In this document: piece by piece, positions 8,659 through 47,127 of the stretch
Position numbering within the stretch: position 1 is the stretch's first letter
How the letters are laid out: each line of letters starts with the position of its first letter
Source of the DNA: Polyangia bacterium
Lineage (GTDB): Bacteria; Myxococcota_A; Polyangia; Palsa-1104; JAEUJZ01
Direction: 5' to 3'
NCBI GenBank assembly: GCA_044222245.1
Contig: JBGANQ010000021.1
Location: 3,597-67,596, forward strand
DNA length: 64,000 bases
The notes under the pieces: generated by a model
Seen by the model: the letters and a program-made list of their open reading frames with translations, nothing else
Database searches by the model: none
Told to the model about the DNA's origin: nothing
Made by a program: the position numbers and the translations under genes

Positions 8659-10266
8659 GTGGCCCTTCGGGGCCGGCGGCGGTCGGCCCTGGGGGTTGTG
8701 CTGGCCCTTGTGTGCGGGCTCGCCGGCTGCCAGCGGCAGCGCGTGCCGAGCGACGAGCTGGTGGTGCTCATCGAGCAGCCGCCCAAGAACCTCGACCCGC
8801 GCTACGCCTCGACCTCGTACGACCTGAAGCTGGAGTTTCTGTGCTACGCGCGCCTGGTCTCGGTCGACGATGACACCCTGGAGCCCAAGCTCGACCTCGC
8901 CGAGGCGATAACCGTCCTGCCCCCAGACCCCGCCCAGCCGGCGGCGCTGCGCTTTGATGTCCGGCTGCGCCCCGCCCGCTTCGCCGACGGCGCCGAGGTG
9001 ACCGCTGGGGACGTCGCCTACACCGTCGAGCGCCTCGCCGATGAAAAGACCGGCAGCACCACCATGCGCCGCCGCTTCGCCGAGTCCGGCCTGCAGGTGC
9101 CGCCGCAGATCCTCGACAGCCGCACCGTGCGCTTCACCCTGGCCCACGCCCACGCCTCGTTCCGCACCGATCTGGACTTCGGCATCTTCCGCCGCGGCAC
9201 CGCCGAGCCGACCAGCAAGCGGCCCAGCGAAGGCGGGATGCCCATCGGCGCCGGCCCGTTTGTGCTGGTCAGCGAGGTCGGCGAGGTGACGCGTTTTGTC
9301 AGAAACCCCAACTTCTACGGCGGCCCGCCGACGCTCAAGCGGCTCACCGTGCGGGTGGTGCGCGACTCCAACTCGCGGCTCTTGTCGCTGGTCGGCGGCT
9401 CGGCGGATCTGACGCAGAACACGGTCTCGCCGCTGCTCTTTGACGCGATCGGCAAGTGGCGCACGCGCCTGCAGCTGCAGACCGCGCCGTCGGCGCTGCT
9501 GTACTACCTGGGCATGAACAACGAGGACCCGCACCTGCGCGAGCCGCGGGTGCGGCGGGCGCTGGCGCTCGGCATCGATCGCGAGCGCATCGTCCGCACC
9601 AAGCTGCACGGCAAGGCGACCCTGGCCTCGGGTCTCTTGGCGCCGCTGCACTGGGCGTATCAGGCCCCGCTGGAGCCGCTGCTCTACGATCCGGCCAAGG
9701 CGCGCCAGCTGCTTGACGAGGCGGGCTTCCCCGACCCCGACGGCCCGGGTCCGCGGCCGCGGTTCACCCTGCAGTACAAGACCTCGACCGACGCCCTGCC
9801 GGTTGCCATCGCCCGCGTCATCGCCGCCCAGCTCGCCGAGATCGGCATCGCCGTCGAGCTGCGGCCGCTGGAGTTTCACCTGTTTTTGTCCGACGTGAAG
9901 AAGGGCAACTTCCAGCTGTACACCCTGAGCTCGTCGGAGATCGCCGAGCCCAACGTCTACCGCAACTTCTTCCACTCGTCGTTCATCCCCACCGCCGCCA
10001 ACCTCGACGCCGGTCTGAACCGGATGCGCTACCGCAACGCCGAGATCGACGCCCTGCTCGACGAAGGGCAGCGCGAGATGGACCGCGACAAGCGGCGCCG
10101 CATCTACGCCCGGGTGCAGACGATCCTCGGGCGCGATCTGCCGATGCTGCCGCTGTGGCACCCCGACAACGTAGTCGTCGCCCGCCGCCTCGTGCAGGGC
10201 TTTCGCATGTGGCCCTCGGCGCAGCTGTCGGGCCTGGCCGGCGTGACCAAGCTGCCCGAGCGCTAG
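8659..10266 (+). CDS. ABC transporter substrate-binding lipoprotein, family 5 (peptide/nickel)
   Basis: LAGC lipobox; NLDP, PIGAGPF, VRRALALGIDR and YDPAKARQLLDEAG motifs; start uncertain. Confidence 0.88.
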   Translation: MALRGRRRSALGVVLALVCGLAGCQRQRVPSDELVVLIEQPPKNLDPRYASTSYDLKLEFLCYARLVSVDDDTLEPKLDLAEAITVLPPDPAQPAALRFDVRLRPARFADGAEVTAGDVAYTVERLADEKTGSTTMRRRFAESGLQVPPQILDSRTVRFTLAHAHASFRTDLDFGIFRRGTAEPTSKRPSEGGMPIGAGPFVLVSEVGEVTRFVRNPNFYGGPPTLKRLTVRVVRDSNSRLLSLVGGSADLTQNTVSPLLFDAIGKWRTRLQLQTAPSALLYYLGMNNEDPHLREPRVRRALALGIDRERIVRTKLHGKATLASGLLAPLHWAYQAPLEPLLYDPAKARQLLDEAGFPDPDGPGPRPRFTLQYKTSTDALPVAIARVIAAQLAEIGIAVELRPLEFHLFLSDVKKGNFQLYTLSSSEIAEPNVYRNFFHSSFIPTAANLDAGLNRMRYRNAEIDALLDEGQREMDRDKRRRIYARVQTILGRDLPMLPLWHPDNVVVARRLVQGFRMWPSAQLSGLAGVTKLPER

Positions 10267-10305
10267 CCCGCCGCCGCGCCGTCTGCCAAAGGGGCGGACG
10301 GCGGC

Positions 10306-12531
10306 TCAGAACAGCTTGAGCTGCGGCGATTTCGGACGACGCCTGGGCGGGGCCGGCTGGTGGACGAGGTGGGCGGGCAGCTCATCGAGGAACGGCGAGG
10401 GGCGATCGGCGGCGGCGGCGGGCTGGCCGGCCGTCGCCTCGCGGCTGACGCACGAGACATAGAGGCGATCCTGGGCGCGGGTGAGGCCGACGTAGAACAG
10501 GCGGCGCTCCTCGGCGAGCTCGGGGGCCGAGCAGCCGCTGCCGGGGAGCAGACCGGCCTCGCAGCCGGCGATGAAGACGACGGGAAACTCCAGGCCCTTG
10601 GCCCCGTGCAGGGTCAGCACCGCCACCCGCTCTTCGGCCGCTTCCCACTCATCGGACTCGTGGCCATGGTCGGCGAGCGGCAGGCTCTGCGGCGCCAGCT
10701 GGGCGAGCTGCGCGCGCACCGCGGCGGTGTCCTTGTCCGGCGCCGCGAGCGCCGCGGCGAGGGCCGTCAGGCGCTCGGGCAGCGGGAGCGGGGCCAGGGC
10801 GGCCAGGCGCGTCGTGATCGCCGCCCGCAGCGCCTCGGGCACCGCGGCGAAGCGGGCCGCGCTCGACCCAGCGGCAAGCGGCGGCGCCGCGGCCGCGGGG
10901 TCAAGCCCGGCCGCCCGCGCCTCCCAGCGCAGCACCCGCCACAGCGCCCCCACGTCGGCCCCGGGGTCCGCGGGCCGGGCGCACAGCCGCAGGTAGGCGA
11001 CCAGATCGCGCGCCGCCGGCGAGTCCAGGTGGGCGCGCCGCGGCCGCTGGATCGGCACCCCCTCCTGCTGCAGCGCCGCGGCCAGCTCATCGGCGCGCGC
11101 GGCGGTGCGGGTGAGCACGGCGATGTCGCTGAAGCTGTAGCTTGGCCCGGCCCAGGCGGCGGCGCGGCGGGCGTCGTGCGAGAGCAGGCTGGTGCCGCCG
11201 ACCAGGCTGTCGATCTCGCGCACGATGCAGAGGGCCTCGGCGAGCGGGCTAGGGGCGGTCAAGCGGGTGAGCGGCGCCCCCGCCGGCCGGGTAGCGAGCG
11301 GCGGCGGCGCTGCCCGCGCCGGGTCGTGGGCGATGACCGCCGCCGCCGCCGCCACCAGGTTGCTCGCCGCGCGGAAGTTCTCCCGCAGGTGCACCACCGC
11401 CGTGCCAGGGAAGTCGTGGGTGAAGGCGTGGAAGTGGCCGACTGCGGCGCCGCGGAAGGCGTAGATCGCCTGATCCGGGTCGCCGATCGCCAGCACCCCG
11501 GCGTGCGCGGCGAGCGCTCGCAATAGCTCGCGCTGCACCCCGCTCACGTCCTGATACTCGTCGACCGCGACGTAGCCGAAGGTGCGGGCGGCGGTGCCGG
11601 CGCGCAGCGCGGCCAGGGCGTTTAGCAGCAGATCGTCCAGGTCCTCGGCCTGATGCTGCGCGAGCAGCTCGGCGTAGCGCTGCGCCGCAGCGGCGAAACT
11701 CTGGCGGTGGGGACCGACCAGCTCGTCCACCAGCTCCTGGGCCGCGGGCGAGGTGCCAGTCAGTTCCGCTGCCGCTGGTGAGGCGTCGGTCAGGCCCGTG
11801 GCCGTGGACGCTGCAGAGGCGGCGGCCAGCGCCCGTTCCGTAGACGCGGGCGCGGGGTCGATCAGTCTCGTGGGCGCGGGCGCGGCGCTGGCCAGCCCCT
11901 GCAGCCAGTCGCTGCGCTGTCCCTTGAGGAGGCTTAGCACCCGGGCCAGCCGCGGCGCTAGCTGGGCCGGCTGGTGCGGCCGCAGCGTGCCGAGCTCCTC
12001 CAGCGCGTGCTCCGCGAACAGCAGCCGATCGCCCTCGCCGAGCAGTGTGGTCCCGGCAGGCAGCGGCCGCAGCAGCAGAGCCACCCGGTGGAACGTACCC
12101 ACCGCAAGCTCGCGCGCCGGCGGGCCCAGCGCCGCCAGCAGGCGCTCCTGCAGCTCTGCCGCCGCCTTGCGGGTAAATGTCACTGCCACGATCTCCGCCG
12201 GCCGCACCTGCGCGGTGGCAATCAGGTGCGACAGCCGCGCGGTCAAGGTCCGTGTCTTGCCTGCCCCCGGCCCGGCGACCACCAGCAGCGGCCCACCGAC
12301 GTGCTCGACCACCTGCCGCTGCGCCGCGGTCAGCCCGGACAGGACGTGCAGCTGCGCAGGGAGCGCCGCCGGCGCGGGCGCTCCCTGCGGCAAGTCGCCC
12401 GGTGCCGCGGCCAGGGGCGGTGCTGCTGCCAGGGGCGAGGCTGCTGCTGCCAGGGGCGGTGCTGCTGCCAGGGACGCTGCTGCTGCGAGAGGGGGTGCTG
12501 CTGCGAGAGGCGCGGCGAGGGGCTCTGGCAT
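10306..12531 (-). CDS. UvrD/Rep-family SF1 DNA helicase
   Basis: AGPGAGKT (Walker A), VTFTRKAA, VDEYQD, IGDPDQAIYAFRGA, TLHGAKGLEF and EERRLFYVGLTRA motifs. Confidence 0.92.
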   Translation of the reverse strand: MPEPLAAPLAAAPPLAAAASLAAAPPLAAAASPLAAAPPLAAAPGDLPQGAPAPAALPAQLHVLSGLTAAQRQVVEHVGGPLLVVAGPGAGKTRTLTARLSHLIATAQVRPAEIVAVTFTRKAAAELQERLLAALGPPARELAVGTFHRVALLLRPLPAGTTLLGEGDRLLFAEHALEELGTLRPHQPAQLAPRLARVLSLLKGQRSDWLQGLASAAPAPTRLIDPAPASTERALAAASAASTATGLTDASPAAAELTGTSPAAQELVDELVGPHRQSFAAAAQRYAELLAQHQAEDLDDLLLNALAALRAGTAARTFGYVAVDEYQDVSGVQRELLRALAAHAGVLAIGDPDQAIYAFRGAAVGHFHAFTHDFPGTAVVHLRENFRAASNLVAAAAAVIAHDPARAAPPPLATRPAGAPLTRLTAPSPLAEALCIVREIDSLVGGTSLLSHDARRAAAWAGPSYSFSDIAVLTRTAARADELAAALQQEGVPIQRPRRAHLDSPAARDLVAYLRLCARPADPGADVGALWRVLRWEARAAGLDPAAAAPPLAAGSSAARFAAVPEALRAAITTRLAALAPLPLPERLTALAAALAAPDKDTAAVRAQLAQLAPQSLPLADHGHESDEWEAAEERVAVLTLHGAKGLEFPVVFIAGCEAGLLPGSGCSAPELAEERRLFYVGLTRAQDRLYVSCVSREATAGQPAAAADRPSPFLDELPAHLVHQPAPPRRRPKSPQLKLF
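12405..12525. repeat. Degenerate 18-24 bp coding tandem repeat (AAAPPLA units) at the UvrD N-terminus
   Basis: Repeated tgctgctgccagggg / tgctgctgcgagagg units. Confidence 0.8.
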
Positions 12532-37306: not shown

Positions 37307-38515
37307 CTAGCCGCCGCCGCCCTGGCCGGCGTCACGCTTGAGCTTGAGGTGGGTCTTGTAGCCGCCCATCCCCTTGCCGCCGCCCAGGCCGGTCATGCTG
37401 GCGGCAAACGAGAAGTGGGCGCCGCCGACGTAGTACTTGCCGTTGAAGCGGGCGTCGGCAGTCTTGAGCTTGACCACGCAGCCCGGCTTGATCTTGGCGT
37501 TGCCCAGGCCCACCGCCTCAGCGGTGATGAAGTTCATCTGGCGCTCTTCGAGGATCGACTTGGCGAGCAGGTCGGCCTCCTCGCGGGTGCGCACCGGGAT
37601 GTCGAAGATGTGCAGATCGGGGTTGTCGCCGAACGCCGAGGCGCCCATCTCGCCGCCGAGCGGGGAGGCCGAGGCCTCGGCCTTGCCGGTGAGCATCTGC
37701 GCATCGCGGCTGGTGCCGGCGGGATCCCAGCCGTGCACGATCACCTTCTTGACCTGACCCGAGGTGGCAAACTCCGGCGAGAAGCTTTCGAGGGCGCCGC
37801 CGGGGTCGGTGTTGCCCTCGGCGCCGTCGACGCCTTCGTTGGTGTAGGTCAGCTCGGCGACGGGGCCGTCGTCCTTCTGTCGCTTGCGGAAGTAGAAGGT
37901 GTCCTTCTCGACGTAGCACTCGCGGCAGGTGCGGGCGGCGCGCTGGCGGAGAAACTCCAGATCGGTCTGGTTCGGCTGGTGCAGGTGCTCGTGGAACAGC
38001 GTCGGCGGCTCGCGCCCGAAGTCGGGGGTCAGGCCGTTGTCCTGGATGATCTTGGAGACGATCTGCTGCTCGGTCTGGTTGACGAAGGTGCGGGTGCGGC
38101 GCTCGCGGGTGAGCTTGTGCATCTTGTTCATGCCGCGGATGTGCACGGTGACCGGCAGGTGGGTGTCAAACGAGGGGAAAAAGCCGGTCAGCTGTCCCTG
38201 GAAGACGATCTCTTCGCTGTCGCCTTCCTGCTTCATCTTGACGACCAGCTCGGCGCCGCCCTTGGGCGTCACCGAGAAGCGCTGGCCCTCGGGGTTGCCG
38301 CTGACAAAGTCGAGCAGGCCGCTCAAAAAGCCCATCACGCCGCCACCGCCGCCGCCGCCGCCGCCACCGCCGTCGCCGAAGTTGGAAAGGACGATCGACG
38401 CAAAGTCGGGCTGGTCGATGTCCTTCATCACCTCGAAGCTGGCGATGTTCTTGCGGTCGATCTCTTTGCCGTCGATGGTGACTTTCGGGTCACCAAATGA
38501 GATGCGATTGCCCAT
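37307..38515 (-). CDS. Phage late control D / gp27-like hub protein (VgrG N-terminal half only)
   Basis: HKLTRERRTRTF, HQPNQTDLEFLRQRA, KVIVHGWDP, GNAKIKPG and RFNGKYYV motifs; ends without a gp5 OB-fold or spike. Confidence 0.88.
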   Translation of the reverse strand: MGNRISFGDPKVTIDGKEIDRKNIASFEVMKDIDQPDFASIVLSNFGDGGGGGGGGGGGVMGFLSGLLDFVSGNPEGQRFSVTPKGGAELVVKMKQEGDSEEIVFQGQLTGFFPSFDTHLPVTVHIRGMNKMHKLTRERRTRTFVNQTEQQIVSKIIQDNGLTPDFGREPPTLFHEHLHQPNQTDLEFLRQRAARTCRECYVEKDTFYFRKRQKDDGPVAELTYTNEGVDGAEGNTDPGGALESFSPEFATSGQVKKVIVHGWDPAGTSRDAQMLTGKAEASASPLGGEMGASAFGDNPDLHIFDIPVRTREEADLLAKSILEERQMNFITAEAVGLGNAKIKPGCVVKLKTADARFNGKYYVGGAHFSFAASMTGLGGGKGMGGYKTHLKLKRDAGQGGGG

Positions 38516-38518
38516 GGC

Positions 38519-38977
38519 TCATCCGCCTCCTGACTTCCCGGTCACGGCCTGGCTGGCCTCCTTCATCTTCAGCGTGCACTCAGCGCGCACTGGCGTTCCC
38601 GTGCTGAGGAACATGGTGAACTTGACGGCGAGCGACTCGACGACGCCCTGAAACTGGATCTCACCCCAGGAAAAGATACACAGCGGCGGGCGCTTCTTGC
38701 TCGAGCTGATGATGCGCGCGAGCTTGGACAAGTCGTCGGTGTATTTCTTTTTAACCGAGGCCTTCTCTTCATATGTATCAAAATGCAGAGTCACACTAAG
38801 CGACGCCGGCGTCGGCTTGGAGAACTCCTCCGGCGGCTCATCGGTAATGGCGCCTTCTTTCTGCGTCCACTGGACCTGCTTTTCAATGGAGATTTCCTTC
38901 GGATTGAAGCAAACCACCATCTTTACCGGGCACTCGGGGTCCTTGGAAAAGAGATTCGCTTTTGCTAGTTCAGCCAT
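38519..38977 (-). CDS. eCIS tube-initiator (Afp7/Pvc7-like) protein, no LysM tail
   Basis: FNPKEISIEK, LSVTLHFDTYE, RPPLCIFSWG, FQGVVESL and KFTMFLSTGTPVRA motifs; ATG overlaps the upstream stop. Confidence 0.85.
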   Translation of the reverse strand: MAELAKANLFSKDPECPVKMVVCFNPKEISIEKQVQWTQKEGAITDEPPEEFSKPTPASLSVTLHFDTYEEKASVKKKYTDDLSKLARIISSSKKRPPLCIFSWGEIQFQGVVESLAVKFTMFLSTGTPVRAECTLKMKEASQAVTGKSGGG

Positions 38978-40070
38978 GAGCGCCAAACCTTTCTTTCGAC
39001 AACTTTTTGACCTGATTCAGATCTTCCACAACCAACTTGGCCATCGCCCGTAGCTTGTTATGGAGGTCCTTTTGGTCCTCTTTAACTTTAGGATGCGCCT
39101 GCTGGCCCAGCGCTTTGGCGACTGGTCGCGGCTCGGGCGCGTTGCTGGTATAGGAAGAGGCCGCGGCCATCTGCTTATTGCTATCGGCAAATGCGATAAG
39201 CGTCATATCGCCGAGCGAGATGCGATCATCGGCGCCGCCGTGCGCCGTCGCGTGCGCCCGCACCGCCTCCATGAGCTGGCGCGAAGCGGCGAGCGCCGCC
39301 TGGTGGGCCTGCTCCTCGGTGATCGAGCTCGCCGGGCGCTCGCCGCGGCGGCTGCTCTGCACCAGCGCCAGCGGCAGGCGATCGCGCCGCTCCTCGGGCG
39401 CCGGCGCGGGCGTCGCTGGGCGGCCGAGATCGGCCTCGACCGCGGCGATGAGCGGCTCCAGGGTCGGCCGGCTCATCAGGCCCCACAGCGGCGACGGGGT
39501 CGCGGCGGTCTTGAGCTCGAGCGCGGCGTGCGCCACCGGCGGCTCCCAGCCCGAGGCGAGGACCGGCTGGTTGGGGCGGCCCGCCTCGCTGCCGCGGCGC
39601 GCCTCGGCGCCGCTGTCGCCCTCGTCCTTGCTGCCGCTGCCGAACATCCGCTCGGGCGACGACAGGGCCATGGTCGGCCGCAGCGAGCGCGGCAGCTTGA
39701 GATCGGCGGCGCGTCGCGGCTCGGGCCGCGCGGTGAGCAGGTCCTGCGTCGGCACCAGCCGCTCGCGGCGCGTGCTGGCGGCGGGCGCGGTGGCCTCGGC
39801 GACCCCCGGGCGCTCACCGCTGGTGGGCGTGCCGGGCGGGCTGAACACCGGCTGCGCGAACAGCCGCTGCCCCGGCCCGCGACCGCCGGCTGGCCCCGCG
39901 CCCTCGACGACGCTGTCGACCAGGCGATCGGCAAAGCGCAGCGAGCGGCTGATCGGGGCCCCGTAGGGACCCACGACGCGACCGAGCACGCTCGACAGCA
40001 TGCGCTCGGAGGCCGCCGCCCCGCTTGGGGTGTAGGGCGCCGCGGCCGCGGTCTTGGGCGACTCCGCCAT
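38970..40070 (-). CDS. eCIS-associated low-complexity protein with helical C-terminus
   Basis: Tightly coupled between the tube gene and the Afp7-like gene; Ala/Pro/Arg-rich. Confidence 0.75.
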   Translation of the reverse strand: MAESPKTAAAAPYTPSGAAASERMLSSVLGRVVGPYGAPISRSLRFADRLVDSVVEGAGPAGGRGPGQRLFAQPVFSPPGTPTSGERPGVAEATAPAASTRRERLVPTQDLLTARPEPRRAADLKLPRSLRPTMALSSPERMFGSGSKDEGDSGAEARRGSEAGRPNQPVLASGWEPPVAHAALELKTAATPSPLWGLMSRPTLEPLIAAVEADLGRPATPAPAPEERRDRLPLALVQSSRRGERPASSITEEQAHQAALAASRQLMEAVRAHATAHGGADDRISLGDMTLIAFADSNKQMAAASSYTSNAPEPRPVAKALGQQAHPKVKEDQKDLHNKLRAMAKLVVEDLNQVKKLSKERFGAHG

Positions 40071-40072
40071 AA

Positions 40073-40516
40073 TCAGCCACCTGCCTTGTAAATCAATCCT
40101 TCGTGGGCAATCTCGATTGTCTCAATCGAGATCTCGTTCTTGGTCGCATCAAACTCCGGACCTTCCCACTTGCAGATCCAGGCGTTGGTGAACTGCCAGC
40201 TGTGGGCGCGCTTCTGGCCGGGGCCGTACTGGATGACGGTGCCGTTGAAGCGCTCCAGCTTCACTCCCGGGTCGTCGTTTACCACCGACTGCCGCTTGGC
40301 CCACAGGCTGCCGCCGGCAAAGCCCTGCTTGAGCACGAGGTTTGAGAATTTGGTGCGGCCGATGAGCTTGTGCTCGGTGGTGTTCAGGCCCCCCTCCTGC
40401 ACCGGGACCACCTCGGCTTCGGAGGTCAGACCGCTGCACGAGCGGAAGTACGCTTCCTGAATGCCGTCGATCTCCACCGCAAAGTGGTAAACGCCATAGG
40501 CTTCGCGTCGCGCCAT
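40073..40516 (-). CDS. T4 gp19-like tail tube protein (single domain)
   Basis: FAVEIDGI..AYFRSCSGL, EGGLN..HKLIGRTKFSNLVLKQG and AWICKWEGPEFDA..IETIEIAHEGL motifs. Confidence 0.93.
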   Translation of the reverse strand: MARREAYGVYHFAVEIDGIQEAYFRSCSGLTSEAEVVPVQEGGLNTTEHKLIGRTKFSNLVLKQGFAGGSLWAKRQSVVNDDPGVKLERFNGTVIQYGPGQKRAHSWQFTNAWICKWEGPEFDATKNEISIETIEIAHEGLIYKAGG

Positions 40517-40528
40517 TGTCTTACCTCG

Positions 40529-42307
40529 TTAAGAGCCCGAACTTGAGCGTTCAGCCATCTGCTGCTCAATCGTGAAATAAATGAACTCCGCCGGCAGTGC
40601 CGGGGCCACCCGGATCTCGGTAATCAACCTGCCGCTATCGACCACATCGGCCGCGTTCACCTCGGAGTCACACTTGACCAGGTACGACTCCTCGGGGCTG
40701 CCACCGGCGAAGTAGCCCTTGGTGTACAGGTCGTGCAAAAACAGCGACACCTCGCGCTCGATGAGCGACCACGTCTGGGCGGTGTTGGGCTCAAACGTGA
40801 TCCACTGGGTGCCGTTTTCCAGAGCGCGCCGCAGCATGATGAACAGCCGGCGCACGTTGAGGTAGCGCCAGTCGGGATCGTTGCTGCAGGTCCGCGCGCC
40901 CCAGATCCGGATGCCCCGGCCGGTGAAGGAGCGGATGGTGTTAATTCCCTCGGAGTTCAACTGTCCAACATGATCATCGGACAGCGGCAACGTAAGTTGC
41001 GTAACCCCGAAGAGCTGCTCGTTGGCGGGGGCCTTGTGCACGCCGTGCTGGATCTCGCTGCGGGCGTACACGCCGGCGATGTGCCCCGACGGCGGCTGCT
41101 TGTGGGTGGCGCCGTTCTGACCGGGCACCACCAGCCAGGGGAAGTAGAACGCGGCGTAGTGGGTGTCGCGGCGCTGGCGCAGGCGGCGCACCTCCTCGAT
41201 GTCGCGGGTGTCGGGCAGATCGAGGATGGCGAAGCGATCCTGGGTCTGCTCGCACAGGTCGATCATCGCGTCGTGGATGCGCTGCACGAACGCCCGCGCC
41301 TCGGGCACCGACATCCGGCTGTAGGCGAGCATGGCGTCGGGCACAAGGACAAGGCCGACGTCGTCGACGTTGGCCAGCGACCACAGGCCGCGGCGGTCCT
41401 CCATGCCGCGGTCGTAGCCGACGAAGTCCTCGGCGGTCATGCCCTCGGTGCCGTCGCGGCCGCCGGTGAGCTTCTCCAGCGGCGCGACCACCGGCAGGTT
41501 ATTGGGCAGGGGCGAAGTCGAGCCCAGGTCCTCAAGGCGGATGAGCTGCGACTCCTCGTTGATGACGCGCGGGGCGTAGCGGCGCGACAGCGGGCTCATT
41601 TGCAGGCTGCGGAAGACCTCGCGGCGATCGCGCAGGGCGGCGTAGATCTCGAACTCGACGACCTCGACGTAGGTCGGGGCGGCGGCGGCGTAGCGGCGGA
41701 CGATCGGCGTGTCGGTGCCCCAGGAGAAGGTCTTTTCCTTGTCGTCCACCTCGGTGATGACGACGTAGTCGCTGCTATCGCGATCGAAGATGCGCACCAG
41801 CGACCCGCGCTCGATGCCGCGCGTCGAGGTCACCCGCGCCACCCCGGCGCCCACCGGCAGATCGAGGGTGAGCAGGGTCTTGGCGCCGGTGGTGTGGGCA
41901 AAGCGGACCCAGATGCTGTTGCCCCAGCGGCCCTCGCTCTGCGACATCACGAGCAGGGTGTCCTTGTCCCAGCCGTCCTTGATGACGCGGGCGGCGGGCA
42001 CCGCGTGGTGCAGCTGCAGCTCCTCGCCGTCTTTGGGCAGGCGGGCGACCCGCACCACGTAGCAGAAGCGGCCGCCGTTGAGGAAAAAGCCCTCGACCGC
42101 CCGCGCCAGGTAGCCCTCGCTCACCGCGCCGTAGACCTCGACGAACTCGGCCCAGCTCTGCAGCCGGCGCGGGGTGTCGAGCGGCCCTTTATTGGCGATT
42201 CCGACAAAGCCGGCGATATGGGTATCCGCGATGGTGAGCGGCGTAATCCGGGACTTGGACCCGCTCTGATATACCCCAGGTGGTCTAACCTCACGGAATG
42301 CGGCCAT
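40529..42307 (-). CDS. Contractile tail sheath protein 2
   Basis: PPGVY, AYFPWL-type motif, PPSGHIAGVYAR, GVHKAPANE, GIRIWGART, WRYLNVRRL and PAEFI motifs. Confidence 0.95.
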   Translation of the reverse strand: MAAFREVRPPGVYQSGSKSRITPLTIADTHIAGFVGIANKGPLDTPRRLQSWAEFVEVYGAVSEGYLARAVEGFFLNGGRFCYVVRVARLPKDGEELQLHHAVPAARVIKDGWDKDTLLVMSQSEGRWGNSIWVRFAHTTGAKTLLTLDLPVGAGVARVTSTRGIERGSLVRIFDRDSSDYVVITEVDDKEKTFSWGTDTPIVRRYAAAAPTYVEVVEFEIYAALRDRREVFRSLQMSPLSRRYAPRVINEESQLIRLEDLGSTSPLPNNLPVVAPLEKLTGGRDGTEGMTAEDFVGYDRGMEDRRGLWSLANVDDVGLVLVPDAMLAYSRMSVPEARAFVQRIHDAMIDLCEQTQDRFAILDLPDTRDIEEVRRLRQRRDTHYAAFYFPWLVVPGQNGATHKQPPSGHIAGVYARSEIQHGVHKAPANEQLFGVTQLTLPLSDDHVGQLNSEGINTIRSFTGRGIRIWGARTCSNDPDWRYLNVRRLFIMLRRALENGTQWITFEPNTAQTWSLIEREVSLFLHDLYTKGYFAGGSPEESYLVKCDSEVNAADVVDSGRLITEIRVAPALPAEFIYFTIEQQMAERSSSGS

Positions 42308-42450: not shown

Positions 42451-42621
42451 CTAGCCGCGCTTGCGCGCTTCGTTAATCTCGCGGTTTATGCGGGCGATCT
42501 CACGCAGCCAGATGTGGCGCTCGTCGTGCTCCATGTCGAGCAGGTCCTCAAGCGGCCAGTGAAAGTGATACGCGATGTAGGCTACCTCCTGGTAAAGCTG
42601 CTCCAGGGGGTAGCTCGTTAT
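42451..42621 (-). CDS. DUF6760-like small ORF (56 aa) without its own start codon; probable -1 frameshift extension of the upstream chaperone
   Basis: Manual translation: ITSYPLEQLYQEVAYIAYHFHWPLEDLLDMEHDERHIWLREIARINREINEARKRG*. Not in the ORF track. Confidence 0.85.
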   Translation of the reverse strand: MTSYPLEQLYQEVAYIAYHFHWPLEDLLDMEHDERHIWLREIARINREINEARKRG

Positions 42622-42627
42622 CCCCCC
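42581..42627 (-). promoter_or_regulatory. Candidate -1 programmed ribosomal frameshift signal (heptamer, spacer, stem-loop)
   Basis: Minus strand reads G_GGG_GGA TAACGA GCTACCCCCTGG-AGCAGCTTTA-CCAGGAGGTAGC. Confidence 0.75.
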
Positions 42628-43007
42628 TGGCCGACTACGCGGCCATCACCTCCTCCCAGCAGGTCGATATCGAACTCATGCTGACAGGAGGGACACTTGG
42701 CGTGGATGCGCGGCGCGCCTTCTTCGTTGATGCGGCGGTAAAACTCCTGCAGGTACGCCAGATCCGTCGAGAACAGGTTCTCGATGATCTCGGTGTCGAG
42801 CATCGGCAGGTCGCCGAGCTTGGTGATCACGCGGCTCAGCAGCACGATGACCAGATAGGCGCGGTTATTCTGCACCCGGTAGTCCTGCAGGGGCACGATC
42901 TCGTCCTTGGCGGTGGCGAGCCGCATCACCCCGGTCCGGTGGAGGTTGCCGTCACTATCTATGTAGCCTTTAGGGAGTGTGAAGGGGAACTCGGTCTTGA
43001 ATGCCAT
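42618..43007 (-). CDS. eCIS tail assembly chaperone-like protein
   Basis: TEFPFTLPKGYID..G.LHRTGVMRLATAKDEI, LLSRVITKLG, LFSTDLAYLQEFYRRIN and CPSC motifs; AAGGTAG RBS-like sequence. Confidence 0.85.
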   Translation of the reverse strand: MAFKTEFPFTLPKGYIDSDGNLHRTGVMRLATAKDEIVPLQDYRVQNNRAYLVIVLLSRVITKLGDLPMLDTEIIENLFSTDLAYLQEFYRRINEEGAPRIHAKCPSCQHEFDIDLLGGGDGRVVGQGG

Positions 43008-43051: not shown

Positions 43052-43957
43052 CTACATGTACTTAAAGCGCATCTCTTCGCAGTACATCTCGACCCGGACG
43101 TAGCGTAGCTTGTCGCTGCTCGACTCATGCTTGTCCGGAGTGAACTTGATAATACCAAGGTTTGTAAACGAGAGCGAGAAAAGCTCGGAGCCGAGATCGC
43201 TTGTCAGGTAGGCCAGAGATCCGGACTTTTCGTTTGACGGATCGCTCTTACCGTCCATCACGAACTCTTTGTGCCACTTGTACCAGGGCTCGATCTCGTT
43301 TTCGGGGATCGTGACGATGACGCTCGGGAAGTCGATCTGCGCTGGCTCCTTCTGGAAGATGAGCCGCTCGCCGATGCTGTTTTCGACGATGTTCTGCTTT
43401 ATCGTAATCGCGTCGACCTTGAGCACCCGCTTACAGTCCAGGCCATCTATCTGCAGGCGGAAGTTCGACGCCGTCCAGCGCTTCTGCTTGACCGGATCAA
43501 TGGGCACCGGCAGCACCGAGCCGCCGTTTGAGTACTTCATCTCGGTGTACTCGGTGGCGATCTTCAGGTTGAACTTGCCGGGCTCTTTGCTCGAAGCGTC
43601 TACCGCCGGAAAGCCAATCTCGGCAATCAGCGCTTCGAGGAAGTTCATGCGCACTAGCTCGTGATAGTCATAATCGCAGGTGATGATCGCGCCGTCTTTG
43701 CGGTCGTAGTTGTAATTGAGGCTCTTTTCGAGCCAGTCATAAAACTGCTTGGACATCGCGGCGCCGCAGGTAATCGAGATATCGTCGACCTTGACGTTGC
43801 CCGGGTGCTTGCGCACCGGGTGACCGCCGGCCAGGCGCTCGTTGACACTCTCGGTGTGGGCCTGGCCGCCCTCGGCGGTCAGCAGCCAGCCGGCGTGCGC
43901 GTTATTCAAATCAAGGAAGAATCGATTGCCAACGTAGGCCCTATTTTTGTCTCTCAC
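43052..43957 (-). CDS. Tandem two-domain tail tube protein B
   Basis: Two gp19-like repeats; paralog of 44113-45057; GAGG RBS before GTG 43957. Confidence 0.85.
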   Translation of the reverse strand: MRDKNRAYVGNRFFLDLNNAHAGWLLTAEGGQAHTESVNERLAGGHPVRKHPGNVKVDDISITCGAAMSKQFYDWLEKSLNYNYDRKDGAIITCDYDYHELVRMNFLEALIAEIGFPAVDASSKEPGKFNLKIATEYTEMKYSNGGSVLPVPIDPVKQKRWTASNFRLQIDGLDCKRVLKVDAITIKQNIVENSIGERLIFQKEPAQIDFPSVIVTIPENEIEPWYKWHKEFVMDGKSDPSNEKSGSLAYLTSDLGSELFSLSFTNLGIIKFTPDKHESSSDKLRYVRVEMYCEEMRFKYM

Positions 43958-43996
43958 AGTAGACCTCAAATTACAAAGAAGAGACCTTCGATTCCT

Positions 43997-44035
43997 GAAA
44001 CAAAACAGGCGGCCGAGTCTGCCTCGGCCGCCTGT
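43997..44035 (-). terminator. Intrinsic terminator inside the eCIS operon
   Basis: Perfect 13-bp stem ACAGGCGGCCGAG/CTCGGCCGCCTGT with 5-nt loop, followed on the minus strand by TTTGTTTC. Confidence 0.8.
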
Positions 44036-44112
44036 CTCCGGCGACCCAGCTTAGGAGCGGGGCCGCCTTAAAGACCCCTTTCTAGGCGGTCCTGAAAAAC
44101 CCGGCTCCGCGA

Positions 44113-45057
44113 CTAGCGCCCGCCGTAGACGGCGCTGCCGAAGTCGAAGCGGATGTCCTCGCAGTACATCTCGACCTTCAGGCGACGGATCGGCTCGCCC
44201 GAGGCCTCGACCTTGTCCGGAGAGACCTTGAACACGCCCAGGTGGAAGAAGTGCAGGGTGAACAGCACTTCCGCCAGGTTCGGGGTGAGGTACTCCAGGG
44301 TGCCGCTCTTCTCGTGATCTTCGCCGTTGTTGCCCTTGATCACGAAGTCCTCGTGCCAGCGATAGAACTCGTCGGCGTGCGACTCGGCCAGGGTGATAAC
44401 GAGGTTGGGGATCTCAACGCTCGTCGGCTCCTTCTGGTAGTCGCGGTGCTCACCGATCGCGTTCTCGGTGACCTTCTGCTTGATGGTCAGCGCTTCGATC
44501 TTGTTGACCTTGCCGCAGCCCGCCTCGCACCCATCGATGCGCAGCCGGAAGTTGGAGGGCAGCCACTTCTTCTGCTTGGCCGCATCGGCCGGGACGATCA
44601 CCTTGCCGCCGCCGCCCCAGGTCTTGCGGGTGGTCTCGGGGGCGAACTTGATGCTCATCATCGCCGAGTCCTTGGACGAGGCGTCGAGCGCCGGCATGCC
44701 GAGCTCGGTGATGAGGCCGAAGGTCCAGGTCAGGCGCGAGACCTCCATATTGTCGTAATCGGCAAATATGAGCGCACCGTCTTCACGACCGCGATTGTGC
44801 GAGGTCTGGTTGAACCCGGTGTCGATCCACTTATACAATTCCTTCGACATACCGGTGCCGCACTTGAAGCTGATCTCTTCGTATTTCAGCGGGCCAAGGT
44901 GCTTCTTGGTCAGGTGGTCAGAGCCGAGCTTCTCCGACACGACATCGGCAGTGGCATCGCCGCCCGCGGCTTCCTTCACGAAGCCAGCGAAGGTGTGCTG
45001 CAGCTCGATGCCATACTTGCTGATACCAAAGGCGCGATCATTGCGGGTAATAGCCAT
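44113..45057 (-). CDS. Tandem two-domain tail tube protein A
   Basis: Repeat 1 (YGIELQ..KHLGPLKYEEISFKCG..ELYKWI..PALDASS) and repeat 2 (NFRLRIDG..KEPTSVEIPNLVITL..EFYRWH..VEMYCE); GGGAGG RBS. Confidence 0.88.
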   Translation of the reverse strand: MAITRNDRAFGISKYGIELQHTFAGFVKEAAGGDATADVVSEKLGSDHLTKKHLGPLKYEEISFKCGTGMSKELYKWIDTGFNQTSHNRGREDGALIFADYDNMEVSRLTWTFGLITELGMPALDASSKDSAMMSIKFAPETTRKTWGGGGKVIVPADAAKQKKWLPSNFRLRIDGCEAGCGKVNKIEALTIKQKVTENAIGEHRDYQKEPTSVEIPNLVITLAESHADEFYRWHEDFVIKGNNGEDHEKSGTLEYLTPNLAEVLFTLHFFHLGVFKVSPDKVEASGEPIRRLKVEMYCEDIRFDFGSAVYGGR

Positions 45058-45129
45058 AAAAGCCTCCCAAAGTGAGAGCGGTGGGCCCCGGCCCCACCGG
45101 AACCGGGGGACCCACTGCCTAGTACGGAA

Positions 45130-46365
45130 CTATTCCGAAACCCCACCGCCGGCAGGCATCTGACCGATCCGGAAGATCACGAACTCGGCCGGCTTCACCG
45201 GAGCCAGGCCGATCTCGACGATCAGCTGACCGACGTCGATAACCTCGGGGGGGTTGGTCTCTTCGTCACACTTGACGTAGAACGCCTTCTCGGGCGTCTC
45301 GCCCATGAGCGCGCCCTGGCGCCAGATCAGCGTGAGGAAGGACGAAATCGTGCGCGTCACCCGCTTCCACAGGCGGAAGTCGTTGGGCTCGAAGACGACC
45401 CACTGGGTCGCGCGCTCGATCGAGGTCTCCACCATGATAAACAGGCGGCGGACGTTGATGTAGCGCCACGACGGGTCGCTCGACAGGGTGCGGGCGCCCC
45501 AGATGCGGATGCCGCCGCCCTGCATGAGCCGGATGCAGTTGATGCCGCGCGGGTTCAGGATGTCCTGCTCGCCACGCGAGACCTGGTAGCGCAGGCCGAG
45601 GGCCCCGCGGACGATCTCGTTGGCGGGGGCCTTGTGGACGCCGCGCTCGTTGTCGGTGCGGGCGTACACGCCGGCGACGTGACCCGAGGGCGGGATGAAC
45701 ACGTTGCCGCGCTCCGGATCATAGACCTGGATCCAGGGGAAGTAGAACGCGCCGTACTTGGAGTCGCGCGGGCGGACCAGGCGATCGACGCCGCCCTGGA
45801 CGGTCTCGCTGCTGTCGAGGATGGCGAAGCGGTCCTTGCGCACTTCGCAGTGGGTGAGCAGCGCGTCCTGCACCGCCGCCGAGATCTGGCCGGGGGCCGA
45901 GACGAGCGAGATCTCGTCGATCTCCTCGAAGCACTTAAGACCCGTGCGGGCGCCGGGGCCCATGTCCTTGCCGATGTAGCGGGCGTCGTTGTCGACCTTG
46001 GGCGGGCCCGACGGGGTAGCGCCGGGAGCCGCGGTGGTCGTGGCAGCGGCCTTGTCCGCCGCGGCGGCCTTGTCCGCCGGCGACAGATCGAGGTTGGCGG
46101 GGGCGCCGACGTTGACGATGTAGCAGCGCGAGCCGCCGTTGTTGAAGAAGCCGTAGATCGCATGGGCGAGGAACGTCGACTGAGTGAAGTCGCCGAACGT
46201 CTTCACAAACTGGGTCCAGTTGGTGACCAGCACTGCCTGATTCACCGGGCCCATCATCGACTCACCGATGAAGCCGACGGTGTTGGTGCCAACTGCCTCA
46301 ATCGGTTTGGAACCGCGGTCAACTTCCTCTACGTATACGCCCGGCGAAAGGTAACTAGTGGCCAT
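45130..46365 (-). CDS. Contractile tail sheath protein 1
   Basis: YLSPGVYVEEV, GFFNNGG, FYFPWI, GVHKAPANE, WRYINVRRL and APVKPAEFVIFRI motifs; AAGGAG RBS. Confidence 0.96.
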   Translation of the reverse strand: MATSYLSPGVYVEEVDRGSKPIEAVGTNTVGFIGESMMGPVNQAVLVTNWTQFVKTFGDFTQSTFLAHAIYGFFNNGGSRCYIVNVGAPANLDLSPADKAAAADKAAATTTAAPGATPSGPPKVDNDARYIGKDMGPGARTGLKCFEEIDEISLVSAPGQISAAVQDALLTHCEVRKDRFAILDSSETVQGGVDRLVRPRDSKYGAFYFPWIQVYDPERGNVFIPPSGHVAGVYARTDNERGVHKAPANEIVRGALGLRYQVSRGEQDILNPRGINCIRLMQGGGIRIWGARTLSSDPSWRYINVRRLFIMVETSIERATQWVVFEPNDFRLWKRVTRTISSFLTLIWRQGALMGETPEKAFYVKCDEETNPPEVIDVGQLIVEIGLAPVKPAEFVIFRIGQMPAGGGVSE

Positions 46366-46497: not shown

Positions 46498-47127
46498 TCA
46501 CTGGCGGAGCCGGTTGAGCTTGTCCAAATCGAAAAAGCGGACTTCCCGCTCGCGAACGCGCGTGATCGGCCTGGCTGTCGTCGGGTACAGCGGGATGGTG
46601 GTCCAGCACTGCACGGCCGGCTTCAGCGGCTGGTTCAGGCTCGACCAGAAGCGCGACAAGACTGTCTCGTCGAGCTTCTGGGAGAGAAGCAAGGGCAGAT
46701 AGTCATCCGGTTCGAACGACTCGCCCTTGAGCTGAGCCCCCCGGATGGTGGGGTGCTCCATAATCGTCTTGATCGTCGCCCCGAGCAGCAGCTGCTCTTC
46801 TTCCGGAGTCTGCGCCCAGCAAGAGATGAGATAGTCCAGGCGCAGCCACATCGGCAGATCGCGAGCGACCTCGCGGACCTGGCCATCGGGACCGACATCC
46901 TCATCTATATACTGCCCGGTGCGGTTGTTGGAGACTCCCTCTTCATCGAGGGTGAGGTTGTACAGGTACAGGGACACCGCCGGCATCTTGCCTTCGATGT
47001 TTTCCTGCTTGGGCGGAGCGACCACAAGATGTACGCGCTTGTAGCCGATCTGCTTATATTCCTGCTTCAGCAGCTCCCCGATGGACTGGGAAGTCTCTTT
47101 GATGATGTGGTACTGGCCGGGATTCAT
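46498..47127 (-). CDS. DUF4255 / Pvc16 (Afp16)-like tail terminator cap protein
   Basis: PAVSLYLYNL, P.WLRLDYLISCWA..EEEQLLLG and FWSSLNQPLKP motifs; first gene of the cluster. Confidence 0.88.
   Translation of the reverse strand: MNPGQYHIIKETSQSIGELLKQEYKQIGYKRVHLVVAPPKQENIEGKMPAVSLYLYNLTLDEEGVSNNRTGQYIDEDVGPDGQVREVARDLPMWLRLDYLISCWAQTPEEEQLLLGATIKTIMEHPTIRGAQLKGESFEPDDYLPLLLSQKLDETVLSRFWSSLNQPLKPAVQCWTTIPLYPTTARPITRVREREVRFFDLDKLNRLRQ

Follow-up and report, generated by a model that had tools for sequence, protein, structure and literature searches.

Two paralogous tandem-domain tube proteins, candidate subunits of a three-fold pseudo-hexameric inner tube, in a contractile injection system operon of a Polyangia bacterium

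Among the fold matches listed in this analysis, the solved contractile systems (T4 and other myophages, pyocin, Afp, PVC, AlgoCIS, the contractile injection systems (CIS) of Anabaena and Streptomyces, and the T6SS) all have single-domain tube subunits, arranged in 6-fold rings that match the 6-fold sheath. In the siphophage tubes of T5 (pb6), DT57C, P74-26 (TTP) and SH-Ab15497, and in the ring of the T5 tail tip, each chain carries two duplicated tube domains, and excerpts of two papers (PMC10034513, PMC8718954) describe the siphophage rings as trimeric and joined head to tail. This fused-pair, three-subunit arrangement has so far been described just for non-contractile phage tails, and a 2021 review (PMC8718954) regards trimeric tubes as found in T5 and phiCbK alone. 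The CIS of Streptomyces coelicolor (CIS-Sc) has, in the excerpts of the papers on it, Cis1a and Cis2 as its tube and sheath (PMC10066040) and several tube paralogues in one cluster (PMC10066040, PMC12237407). The tube subunit Cis1a has a single domain of 149 aa and assembles into C6 rings, Cis1b and Cis7 are tube initiators, there is one sheath gene, and the baseplate genes are reported to lie within the cluster. Afp, PVC and AlgoCIS are extracellular and combine a Pvc16_N cap, two sheath paralogues, gp19 tubes, a CIS_tube initiator and a gpD hub (in Afp, Afp1 and Afp5 are tubes and Afp2-4 sheaths); their tube proteins are all single-domain hexamers. Searches of the full-text literature (supplements and subscription journals lie outside its coverage) turned up no account of a tandem tube protein in a contractile system, of Tat-signal tube proteins or of DUF6760.

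Here, a stretch of 64,000 nucleotides from a Polyangia bacterium (the window) was found to carry an operon of ten genes, two of which encode tandem tube proteins, called TT_A and TT_B (Table 1). Based on Pfam matches, the CIS core is present, namely sheath, tube, cap (Afp16), initiator (Afp7) and spike hub (Afp8), and thus the placement of the two genes in a CIS operon by the sequence-only reading holds. Its label "eCIS", however, is unsupported: the closest solved sheath (8bky_A, 461.9 bits to the 411-aa sheath) and the closest solved tube (Cis1a, 44.4 bits to the profile of the tandem family) are both those of the cytoplasmic CIS-Sc. The cap, the gp19-type tubes, the initiator, the hub and the pair of sheath paralogues (44.7% identity over 291 aa) are shared with Afp, PVC and AlgoCIS; no tail fibre or AAA+ ATPase (Afp15) gene was found among the ten operon genes. 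Unlike in CIS-Sc, there are two sheath genes, and no baseplate wedge genes (gp25, gpJ, gpI) were found within the window; GPW_gp25, Baseplate_J and Tail_P2_I lie together on another contig. Unrelated plus-strand genes lie downstream of the gpD gene.

Table 1. Genes of the CIS operon in operon order (positions are those of the window)
Feature	Position	Strand	Remarks
Pvc16/Afp16-like tube cap (DUF4255), 209 aa	46498..47127	-	first operon gene; Pfam Pvc16_N 73.9 bits
Sheath, 411 aa, Cis2-like	45130..46365	-	Pfam Phage_sheath_1 and Phage_sheath_1C; directly upstream of TT_A
TT_A, tandem tube protein, 314 aa	44113..45057	-	ATG start; Pfam gp19 54.9 bits, 2 stretches
TT_B, paralogous tandem tube protein, 305 aa	43052..43969	-	TTG start; Pfam gp19 60.7 bits, 2 stretches
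p129 with -1 frame extension, putative P2 E/E+E'-like tail assembly chaperone	42451..43007	-	DUF6760; slippery heptamer
p129 ORF; -1 frame extension	42618-43007; 42451-42621	-	
Second sheath paralogue, 592 aa	40529..42307	-	Pfam sheath domains; 306.5 bits to S. coelicolor sheath
Single-domain tube, 147 aa	40073..40516	-	Pfam gp19 114.5 bits
p366, Ala/Pro-rich	38970..40070	-	tape-measure position, equal to that of P2 gene T
Cis7/Afp7-like tube initiator, 155 aa	38519..38986	-	Pfam CIS_tube 102.2 bits
Cis8/VgrG-like spike hub (gpD), 402 aa	37307..38515	-	last operon gene; Pfam Phage_GPD 39.7 bits

In phage P2 the tail genes follow the order FI, FII, E/E', T, U, D, and the order of the operon is that of P2 plus an inserted sheath-tube pair. 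The p129 gene, sited after the tube gene, ends with the slippery heptamer GGGGGGA just before its stop, and the extension in the -1 frame matches DUF6760 (53.4 bits) and, below the cut-off of 23 bits, Phage_P2_GpE (18 bits, E = 0.002). Both the heptamer and the 56-aa peptide in the -1 frame, as found in the window, are conserved in all of 21 related CIS loci; p129 is thus a candidate frameshifted chaperone of the P2 E/E+E' type, with frameshifting predicted from the sequence. The product of p366, which matches no Pfam or NCBIfam family, probably serves as the tape measure; across the related loci the distance between the ORFs for the 147-aa-like tube and the Cis7-like protein ranges from none to about 4.8 kb. 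The 155-aa Cis7-like protein shows a weak match to Phage_P2_GpU (E = 0.013).

Both tandem ORFs are free of internal stops. They are paralogues, as the sequence-only reading had held, with 42% identity over 301 residues (E = 6e-94), and in a tree 16 rows from related loci, the orthologues of TT_B, group in a supported clade. With two domains per chain they depart from the usual gp19-type subunit, a single domain of about 140-170 aa that forms true hexameric rings. Each is about twice as long as the 147-aa tube and has a Gly/Pro linker (GGGGKVIVPAD in TT_A, NGGSVLPVPID in TT_B) at about residues 147-158; in TT_A it joins an N domain (about 13-147) to a C domain (about 153-309). The same reading had predicted two hits per protein in a scan with Phage_T4_gp19 (PF06841), and two stretches were found in each: both whole proteins exceed the cut-off of 28.2 bits, and the N halves exceed it when scanned alone (34.8 bits for TT_A and 47.6 bits for TT_B), but the C half of TT_A (24.2 bits, E = 3e-5) and that of TT_B (17.3 bits, E = 4e-3) remain below it by themselves, while spanning positions 4-131 and 3-133 of the 134 in the profile. 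TIGR02241 gave 42.9 and 35.3 bits, under its cut-off of 62.4, and the Pfam family TssD matched TT_B with E = 0.001. A search of the ESM Atlas returned matches confined to the family of the tandem proteins itself.

BLASTP detected no similarity between the N and C halves of TT_A, nor between its C half and the 147-aa tube. When profiles of the two halves, taken as columns of one 64-sequence family alignment, were compared by hhalign, they matched with 98.1% probability (E = 5.8e-13, 150 columns, 12% identity), and therefore the repeat is real and ancient rather than a product of chance. Each protein arose when a tube domain of the gp19/Hcp fold was duplicated and fused in the distant past, which bears out the head-to-tail fusion of two gp19-like domains read earlier from the sequence.

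The AlphaFold2 models of TT_A (pLDDT 91.8, pTM 0.88) and TT_B (pLDDT 91.1, pTM 0.86) have the tube fold, with its beta-sandwich, long hairpin and single helix, in both halves, so that the case in which only one half adopts it, proposed as a check of the fusion, was not encountered (pLDDT 91-92). In the models, the C domains resemble the tubes of CIS, T4 and PVC (Z 12-15, rmsd 2.6-4.1 Å, 137-150 residues), including Afp1, Pvc1 and Alg1 (Z 12-14), and the N domain of TT_A resembles Hcp (Z 9.3-9.8); among the matches listed, the N domain of TT_B is covered by full-length matches, none being confined to it. The single-domain CIS tubes match just one of the two domains (Z 12-15), whereas the trimeric siphophage tubes superpose on the whole chain (Z 16-17.5, rmsd 3.4-4.0 Å, 270-281 residues). 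The model of TT_A aligns over both domains with P74-26 TTP (Z 17.1, rmsd 3.8 Å, 281 residues) and T5 pb6 (Z 17.1, 276 residues), and with the major tail protein of SH-Ab15497 at Z 16.8; for TT_B the values are 17.5, 17.3 and 17.0, respectively, and the full-length superpositions on 8ed0_A, 9iny_A and 8xan_A range over Z 16.8-17.5. Judged from these superpositions of predicted models, the two domains of a chain stand side by side, like neighbouring positions of a ring.

Sequence identity to the siphophage tubes in these structural alignments is only 7-11%, and they are absent from the PDB sequence matches of the family (E<=0.1); since no sequence similarity is detectable, the fusion probably arose independently. 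The tandem proteins also lack the Ig-like decoration domain of the siphophage group, and their genes, unlike those of the non-contractile siphophage tails, adjoin sheath genes, of which the operon has two. On this basis they may work like pb6 and P74-26 TTP and are filed outside that family. The hubs of the gp27/VgrG type are likewise trimers with two tube-like domains per chain and pseudo-6-fold symmetry. However, the operon has its own gpD/VgrG-like hub, and the tandem proteins have no spike domains; no hub of this type is among their listed full-length structural matches, though a likeness to one may exist.

A prediction of three TT_A copies gave a score of 0.70, the best of three controls scoring 0.00; in a calibration with two copies rather than three, 20 of 30 proteins solved as same-chain pairs attained this mark, as did 1 of 23 solved as single chains. 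A custom alignment was used here, and the high score may stem from a resemblance to tube rings already solved. The runs agreed in at least 59% of the contacts, with a partner pLDDT of at least 78. The confident contacts, reported for the scored copy, are lateral and head to tail on both of its sides, linking residues 31-57 (a hairpin of the N domain) of one copy to the C domain of its neighbour (residues 211-301). The side-by-side geometry is itself a prediction, and such predictions may echo the ring contacts of hexameric tubes. Two geometries had been proposed from the sequence, a 3-fold pseudo-hexameric ring and covalently linked ring pairs, and the models favour the former (Z 17.1-17.5 and rmsd 3.4-3.8 Å over 272-281 residues with the tubes of P74-26 and T5, lateral N-to-C contacts), the linked axial pairs being unsupported. 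A stack in which the two domains follow one another along the axis, six chains making a linked double ring of true C6 symmetry, would be compatible with the length of the linker alone (about ten residues), but in both models the domains lie side by side as in the trimeric tubes (Z 17 over both domains), the pTM values of 0.86-0.88 denote a confident inter-domain arrangement and the predicted inter-chain contacts run laterally from N to C domain; we regard such a double ring as highly improbable.

The genes for TT_A and TT_B lie between the Cis2-like sheath gene and the p129 chaperone gene, and the gaps of 72 (from the 411-aa sheath gene to TT_A), 143 and 44 nt are too short for another gene. 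In the window-type loci this slot is occupied by tandem genes alone, while in three of three sister Myxococcota loci (in one of which the contig ends short of the first sheath gene) the slot between sheath and p129/DUF6760 holds three single-domain tube genes; TT_A and TT_B are therefore read as inner-tube subunits. In a fourth fetched sister locus, two tube genes were the sole CIS genes. The gene order of the window is common to the 22 loci with a sheath gene among 80 related loci, which were retrieved with a 12-row alignment, and the core of sheath, tandem genes and second sheath recurs in five of five high-quality genomes from another family within the class. When the family profile was compared with the PDB (E<=0.1), all five matches were main tubes: Cis1a, the PlPVC1 tube, Afp1, Pvc1 and All3324. 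The sister-locus slot genes also bear on how the tandem proteins arose. A recent fusion of two adjacent single-domain genes was considered as their origin and finds no support there, all three of these genes scoring higher with the profile of the N domain (48-72 bits) than with that of the C domain (13-34 bits).

Taken together, TT_A and TT_B may be inner-tube subunits of the CIS, two-domain chains in C3 pseudo-hexameric rings like those of T5 and P74-26, a proposal whose chances we consider evenly balanced. Ancient duplication and fusion would have given chains of two diverged gp19/Hcp-fold domains, three of which would join head to tail, each C domain touching the N domain of the neighbouring chain, in a ring of true 3-fold and pseudo-6-fold symmetry. 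The rings would stack on initiator layers formed by the gpD/Cis8 trimer, the Cis7-like 155-aa protein and probably the 147-aa tube, and the Cis2-like 411-aa sheath would wrap the stack. TT_A and TT_B might form separate rings, mixed rings or alternative tubes.

The 147-aa protein, taken as the normal tube by the sequence-only reading, does have a single gp19 domain, but the main-tube slot is held by the tandem genes, and it may instead be a baseplate-proximal adaptor of the Cis5/Cis1b type; alternatively, it may be the main tube. Its gene follows that of the 592-aa sheath, directly precedes the genes for the tape-measure-like, Cis7-like and Cis8-like proteins, and is present in every window-type locus whose fetched DNA reaches its position. 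Its PDB hits are mixed: it matches Alg1 (the AlgoCIS main tube, 53.8 bits) better than the Alg baseplate tube (46.4 bits) and Afp1 better than Afp5, and in the other direction it matches the Cis1b-like 9gtp_a (42.3 bits) better than Cis1a (28.4 bits) and Pvc5 better than Pvc1. The NCBIfam score, 78 bits for CIS5_fam against 33 for CIS1_fam, was rejected as a call for an adaptor; all eight single tubes tested from two sister loci, those in the main slot included, as well as the C94 tube, scored higher with CIS5 than with CIS1, and therefore the comparison does not discriminate. The members of the tandem family themselves split 35 to 27 of 64 between CIS5_fam and CIS1_fam. The genome is 83% complete, so a Cis1-type gene could be unassembled.

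If the 147-aa protein were the bulk tube, the tandem proteins would be accessory rings (an adaptor, a distal segment or a cargo layer) or interchangeable paralogues like those of Hcp, and this we consider rather unlikely. It would agree with the fact that the 147-aa protein is the strongest gp19 match of the operon and resembles the main tubes of AlgoCIS and Anabaena CIS (51.5 bits to the latter), and the top Foldseek match is a tandem-domain ring protein of the T5 tail tip (7qg9_G, 298 aa), which we take to be p140. The Hcp proteins of the T6SS have the same fold, their paralogues are scattered over the genome and some of their relatives are fused to enzymes. Similarly, the window genome has two further tandem paralogues outside the operon, C90 (75% identity to TT_A) and C61 (32-33%), five related high-quality genomes have three or four matches each, all of which recalls orphan Hcp genes, and some relatives are fused to enzymes (Peptidase_S8, Amidase_2 and PLD domains in P0148) in the manner of Hcp with effector extensions. 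Hcp is, however, a single domain, and the Hcp2-Hcp3 heterohexamer of B. fragilis consists of two separate chains, whereas a tandem protein is one fused chain. Against accessory rings, it is the tandem genes and not the 147-aa tube gene that adjoin the Cis2-like sheath gene, in the slot that holds single tubes in the sister clusters, and the tandem profile matches solely main tubes in the PDB. In the afp cluster the afp5-type adaptor gene stands just before the initiator and spike genes, and the 147-aa tube gene occupies exactly this afp5/cis1b-type position.

The tandem family is large, with 902 clusters at 50% identity reaching E<=1e-30 and 2768 cluster representatives at E<=0.001, and is found almost exclusively in uncultured bacteria; every one of the 80 genome loci belongs to an assembly derived from a metagenome. 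Outside this Myxococcota class its members are mostly orphans, and the family is not specific to CIS. No sheath gene was found in the fetched flank of 58 of the 80 related loci; in 29 of these 58 the DNA extends 5 kb or more to either side of a tandem gene. A sheath C-domain above the cut-off was found in three of 15 orphan-bearing genomes (completeness not given), and Phage_sheath_1 and Baseplate_J were found in none of the five orphan-bearing genomes examined (completeness not given). Tat signal peptides were recognized in 31 of 129 family representatives and in 18 of 60 non-CIS tandem ORFs (one row was dropped as a false positive), in contrast to none of 35 CIS-linked tandem ORFs and none of 120 close relatives. 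For the members that bear such a signal, Tat export is incompatible with cytoplasmic assembly of a CIS. Because the orphans often have no detectable sheath gene and often a Tat signal, the family can work without a sheath, and such members indicate that the tube fold has a use not described so far.

These orphans raise a further alternative, in which TT_A and TT_B lie outside the CIS particle and belong to a sheath-independent ring or tube family that travels with the operon as a chaperone, a regulator or something with a separate function. Most of the family members found are orphans, the remaining 12 of the 15 genomes with orphans gave no sheath hit that passed the cut-off, some members carry Tat signals, and in a tree the CIS-linked clades are nested among orphans of other phyla. 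In addition, an all-against-all BLAST of the 2048 ORFs within 5 kb of a tandem gene in the 58 sheath-less loci revealed a methyltransferase gene as a conserved neighbour in 12 + 4 orphan loci. Nevertheless, the position between sheath and chaperone is strictly kept in 22 loci and in two families, with short gaps, all 35 CIS-linked copies are without a Tat signal, and no other gene fills the main-tube slot; a location outside the particle is thus quite unlikely.

Going beyond the preferred reading, we propose tentatively, with somewhat less than an even chance of being right, that the CIS tube of the Polyangia type consists wholly of two-domain subunits, and that elsewhere the family has been exapted for a sheath-independent role, often Tat-exported and often paired with a methyltransferase. 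The CIS would then be the first contractile system whose sheath encloses a tube of truly 3-fold (pseudo-6-fold) symmetry, possibly with mixed rings of TT_A and TT_B or with a separate tube domain matched to each of the two sheath paralogues, and a phage-tail tube module would have been exapted in other phyla for an extracytoplasmic role. Inside a sheath, a tandem tube would break the one-to-one symmetry of sheath and tube, since it would present two different surfaces, one or the other to each sheath subunit, and only half as many chains would need to be assembled. The lumen would be lined by two different domains (four with both proteins), which bears on cargo loading and on the engineering of CIS as delivery devices; that these domains shape the lumen and select cargo, as the sequence-only reading suggested, is speculation.

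Contigs of RNA libraries from four studies match the operon and give a weak hint of its expression. The summed word depth in four RNA runs is greatest over TT_A and the 411-aa sheath gene; we draw no conclusion from this, as the runs are stored as contigs, in which depth cannot rank genes, some bins are without cover and DNA carry-over is possible. One RNA-library contig of 1719 nt, with two differing letters, spans positions 43475-45193 and contains TT_A together with part of TT_B.

The two tandem tail-tube proteins, TT_A and TT_B, are 42% identical across 301 residues, in keeping with their proposed paralogy, and each contains two Phage_T4_gp19 stretches by Pfam. When the halves were scanned alone, the N halves passed the curated cut-off of 28.2 bits (34.8 and 47.6 bits), but the C halves fell under it (24.2 and 17.3 bits), though nearly the entire gp19 profile was covered. 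A BLASTP comparison of the two TT_A halves gave no similarity. When the 64-sequence TT family alignment was split into N-half and C-half columns and the two were compared by hhalign, they matched at 98.1% probability (E-value = 5.8e-13, 150 columns, 12% identity); the internal duplication is thus real and old. In AlphaFold2 models built from family alignments (pLDDT 91.8 and pTM 0.88 for TT_A; 91.1 and 0.86 for TT_B), a structure search matched the C domains (about residues 153-309) to tube proteins of contractile injection systems (CIS), T4 and PVC with Z of 12-15, and the TT_A N domain (13-147) to Hcp with Z of 9.3-9.8; the TT_B match list held no row confined to the N domain. As modelled, both halves are tube folds, and the sequence-only reading of two gp19-like domains per protein is upheld.

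The top structural matches of both models span both domains and are tube proteins known to be trimeric and pseudo-hexameric: P74-26 TTP (Z 17.1 over 281 residues for TT_A and 17.5 over 276 for TT_B, with an rmsd of 3.8 A in each case), T5 pb6 (17.1 and 17.3) and the SH-Ab15497 major tail protein (16.8 and 17.0), with the DT57C tube also among the best; Foldseek ranked the same set first. In the P74-26 tube, two domains lie side by side and three chains, head to tail, close the ring (PMC10034513), and a review terms the trimeric pseudo-hexameric arrangement unique to T5 and phiCbK (PMC8718954). Full-text literature searches gave no account of a tandem tube protein from a contractile system. A complex prediction with three TT_A copies reached 0.70, while the best of three controls stayed at 0.00. 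It used a custom alignment and a copy number unlike that of the calibration, and a pass may reflect likeness to solved rings. In the calibration, 20 of 30 proteins with solved structures of one-chain pairs attained this mark, as did one of 23 whose structures are single chains. Contacts common to the runs made up at least 59%, and partner pLDDT was 78 or more. On both sides of the scored copy, confident contacts run from the N-domain hairpin (31-57) of one chain to the C domain (211-301) of its neighbour. They fit a head-to-tail ring, which may close at three, and argue against axial stacking. Of the two geometries first proposed, the trimeric pseudo-hexameric ring is therefore favoured in silico by two-domain superposition and lateral contacts, and covalently linked, stacked ring pairs are left unsupported.

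Both genes belong to a ten-gene operon on the minus strand (47127 to 37307), with unrelated genes at its flanks, in high-GC DNA (about 0.59-0.77 G+C).

Genes of the CIS operon, in operon order
Gene product	Position	Strand	Assignment
Pvc16_N cap	46498-47127	minus	Pfam
Sheath, 411 aa (sheath411)	45130-46365	minus	Pfam
TT_A, 314 aa	44113-45057	minus	Pfam
TT_B, 305 aa	43052-43969	minus	Pfam
p129, 129 aa	42618-43007	minus	no Pfam family
Sheath, 592 aa (sheath592)	40529-42307	minus	Pfam
gp19 tube, 147 aa (tube147)	40073-40516	minus	Pfam, 114.5 bits
Ala/Pro-rich protein, 366 aa, tape-measure-like by position	38970-40070	minus	
CIS_tube protein	38519-38986	minus	Pfam
gpD/VgrG-like hub	37307-38515	minus	Pfam

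The order (sheath, TT tubes, E/E'-like chaperone, sheath, tube, then tape-measure-like, U-like and D-like genes) is that of the P2 tail, into which a second sheath-tube pair is inserted. The chaperone position is held by p129, the 3' end of which reads GGGGGGA and then a stop, while the -1 frame runs on for 56 codons (42451-42621, minus strand). The -1 frame peptide has a match to DUF6760 at 53.4 bits and a weak one to Phage_P2_GpE (18 bits, E-value = 0.002); the window shares both the heptamer and the peptide with 21 of 21 related loci. With its extension (42451-43007), p129 looks like a candidate programmed-frameshift chaperone of the E/E+E' type in a CIS operon; full-text searching found no paper on DUF6760.

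In three sister Myxococcota loci (L089, L090 and L091) with the same frame, three single-domain tube genes lie between the first sheath and the chaperone genes (9019-10565, 9525-11121 and 9678-11194, respectively), the L089 contig stopping short of the first sheath gene; a fourth tube gene follows the second sheath gene. The fourth fetched locus, L088, has two tube genes only. Multi-paralogue tubes seem to be the rule in this group. In window-type loci the slot contains no genes other than one or two TT genes. All five matches of the TT profile to solved structures are main tubes (Cis1a at 44.4 bits, PlPVC1 tube, Afp1, Pvc1 and All3324), and sheath411 is nearest to Cis2 (461.9 bits), of the same Streptomyces system as Cis1a. 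Reports on that system name Cis1a as tube, Cis2 as sheath, and Cis1b and Cis7 as tube initiators (PMC10066040, PMC12237407). Against a 140-aa chain exclusive to the baseplate entry 9GTP, which we infer to be Cis1b, tube147 scored 42.3 bits, against Cis1a 28.4 bits; in other systems the main tube scored higher (Alg1, All3324, Afp1). From synteny and kinship we infer that TT proteins would be the main tube and tube147 an adaptor. That TT_A and TT_B form accessory rings instead, a reading more at ease with the tube147 scores in other systems than with the main-tube matches of the TT profile, is in our judgement less likely. The most likely reading, to which we give about an even chance, is that TT_A and TT_B fill the main-tube slot of a CIS of Cis2/Cis1 type as structural subunits of its inner tube; accessory rings and, lower still, independence of the particle rank below it. 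NCBIfam scores CIS5_fam above CIS1_fam on tube147; the single tubes of the sister loci all share this bias, so it was rejected as an adaptor sign and carries no information.

The distance between the tube147-like and Cis7-like genes is 1.1 kb in the window, about 3-5 kb in L011, L023, L025, L027, L072 and L080, and almost nil in L089-L091, which fits a tape-measure gene varying in length or presence. No baseplate wedge genes were found within the window; GPW_gp25, Baseplate_J (1127 aa) and Tail_P2_I with a PASTA domain are grouped on contig C175 of the same genome (L007 6726-18954), separate from the tail-module contig. After them come four FHA-domain proteins, of which one also has a VWA domain. 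The arrangement points to a dispersed CIS, the regulation of which may depend on phospho-threonine.

The TT family is widespread: a word-indexed search gave 1088 relatives of similar length, and an exhaustive search 2768 cluster representatives at E<=0.001, 902 of them at E<=1e-30, mostly with full-length alignments. A search of species-representative genomes gave 123 candidate stretches, 84 of which proved to be relatives; the 80 loci retained all stem from metagenome-derived assemblies. A sheath gene is present in 22 of these, with the gene order of the window as far as each contig extends; by NCBI label nearly all are Myxococcota, with a few titles reading 'Pseudomonadota' or 'delta proteobacterium'. 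In the fetched flanks of the other 58 no sheath gene was found, and in 29 of these the sequence on either side of a TT gene is 5 kb or longer; they come from Bacillota (Symbiobacteriaceae), Armatimonadota, Acidobacteriota, Chloroflexota, Actinomycetota, Gemmatimonadota, Verrucomicrobiota, Bacteroidota, Thermodesulfobacteriota, Myxococcota and one archaeon. In whole-genome searches of orphan-bearing genomes (completeness not given), the sheath C-domain exceeded the cut-off in three of 15, and Phage_sheath_1 and Baseplate_J were found in none of five. In each of two small Actinomycetes genomes (about 2.5 Mb) with no sheath or Baseplate_J match, a single-domain gp19 gene scores very strongly (about 165 bits; G001:C1:16653-17045 and G002:C1:173268-173660) and is present alongside an orphan tandem gene.

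In a 301-genome sample of the phylum of the window, two-domain matches occur, among the matches listed, in seven genomes (its own family and family f8), plus two partial; the remaining listed matches cover N-domain positions only, and the frames that contain them measure about 111-283 aa, for the most part about 145-185 aa. In all five f8 genomes (97-99% complete) a sheath gene adjoins a TT gene and another sheath gene lies downstream; TT matches number 3-4 per genome, not all of them on the contig of the sheath genes. The genome of the window likewise has extra TT paralogues, on C90 (561-1532, L001 558-1592; 75% identity to TT_A, beside a 782-aa TPR protein) and C61 (13179-14120, L002 9132-10133; 32-33%), and an extra single tube on C94 (131566-131970, L003 9519-10397; 59% identical to tube147, in a 292-aa frame), none of them within a CIS locus; peroxiredoxin and glycoside hydrolase genes are also among the neighbours of these three. 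A quick, unrooted maximum-likelihood tree built from 97 TT sequences places orthologues of TT_A (17 rows, support 99) and TT_B (16 rows, support 100) in separate clades, each nested among orphans of other phyla, and on it the CIS label needs at least five changes.

The tube fold is thus in use without a sheath in many lineages, and therefore a CIS role is not to be taken for granted. This is the main counter-argument to the inner-tube reading; that TT_A and TT_B act independently of the particle, as this branch might imply and their place between the sheath and chaperone genes does not, we nevertheless hold to be quite improbable. The family includes an unexplored, sheath-independent sister branch, part of which is predicted to be exported by Tat. 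A twin-arginine motif followed by a hydrophobic stretch starts 31 of 129 representatives (280-480 aa) and none of 120 close relatives. Among locus ORFs, a Tat filter picked out 19 of 60 non-CIS copies, with L009 judged a false positive, and none of 35 CIS-linked copies; the NCBIfam TAT model flagged five of 64 alignment members. A canonical Tat signal peptide is predicted in about a quarter of non-CIS members (representatives P0128-P0273; loci L030, L035, L040, L044, L046-L050, L053, L058, L059, L064, L070, L074, L081, L082 and L087).

A DUF7059-MTS-DUF7782 methyltransferase gene adjoins the TT gene in 12 orphan loci of Actinomycetota and Chloroflexota (L048 8207-9787, L050 20-4900, L074 8279-9784 and nine further), mostly directly upstream on the same strand, and a MethyTransf_Reg/PKMT-type gene is adjacent in four others (L040 1212-3011 and three further). 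L050 and L059 have three tandem TT copies. Some long relatives, including metagenomic P0125, P0131, P0148 and P0221, join the tandem module to CIS_tube, an extra gp19, or Peptidase_S8, Amidase_2, PG_binding or PLD domains; they may represent genuine effector fusions or else read-through in the gene calling.

Of the words sampled from the operon, as many as about half occur in RNA-library contigs from sludge and wastewater studies; these, being contigs, prove no transcription and rank no genes. Four runs from four studies gave near-identical contigs on the operon, one of 1719 nt (43475-45193). One contig (run X4) is without 77 nt of the TT_A/TT_B intergenic region (44007-44083), which may be a strain variant, and in two runs the summed contig depth rises sharply over the p129 3' end and frameshift region (42555-42882).
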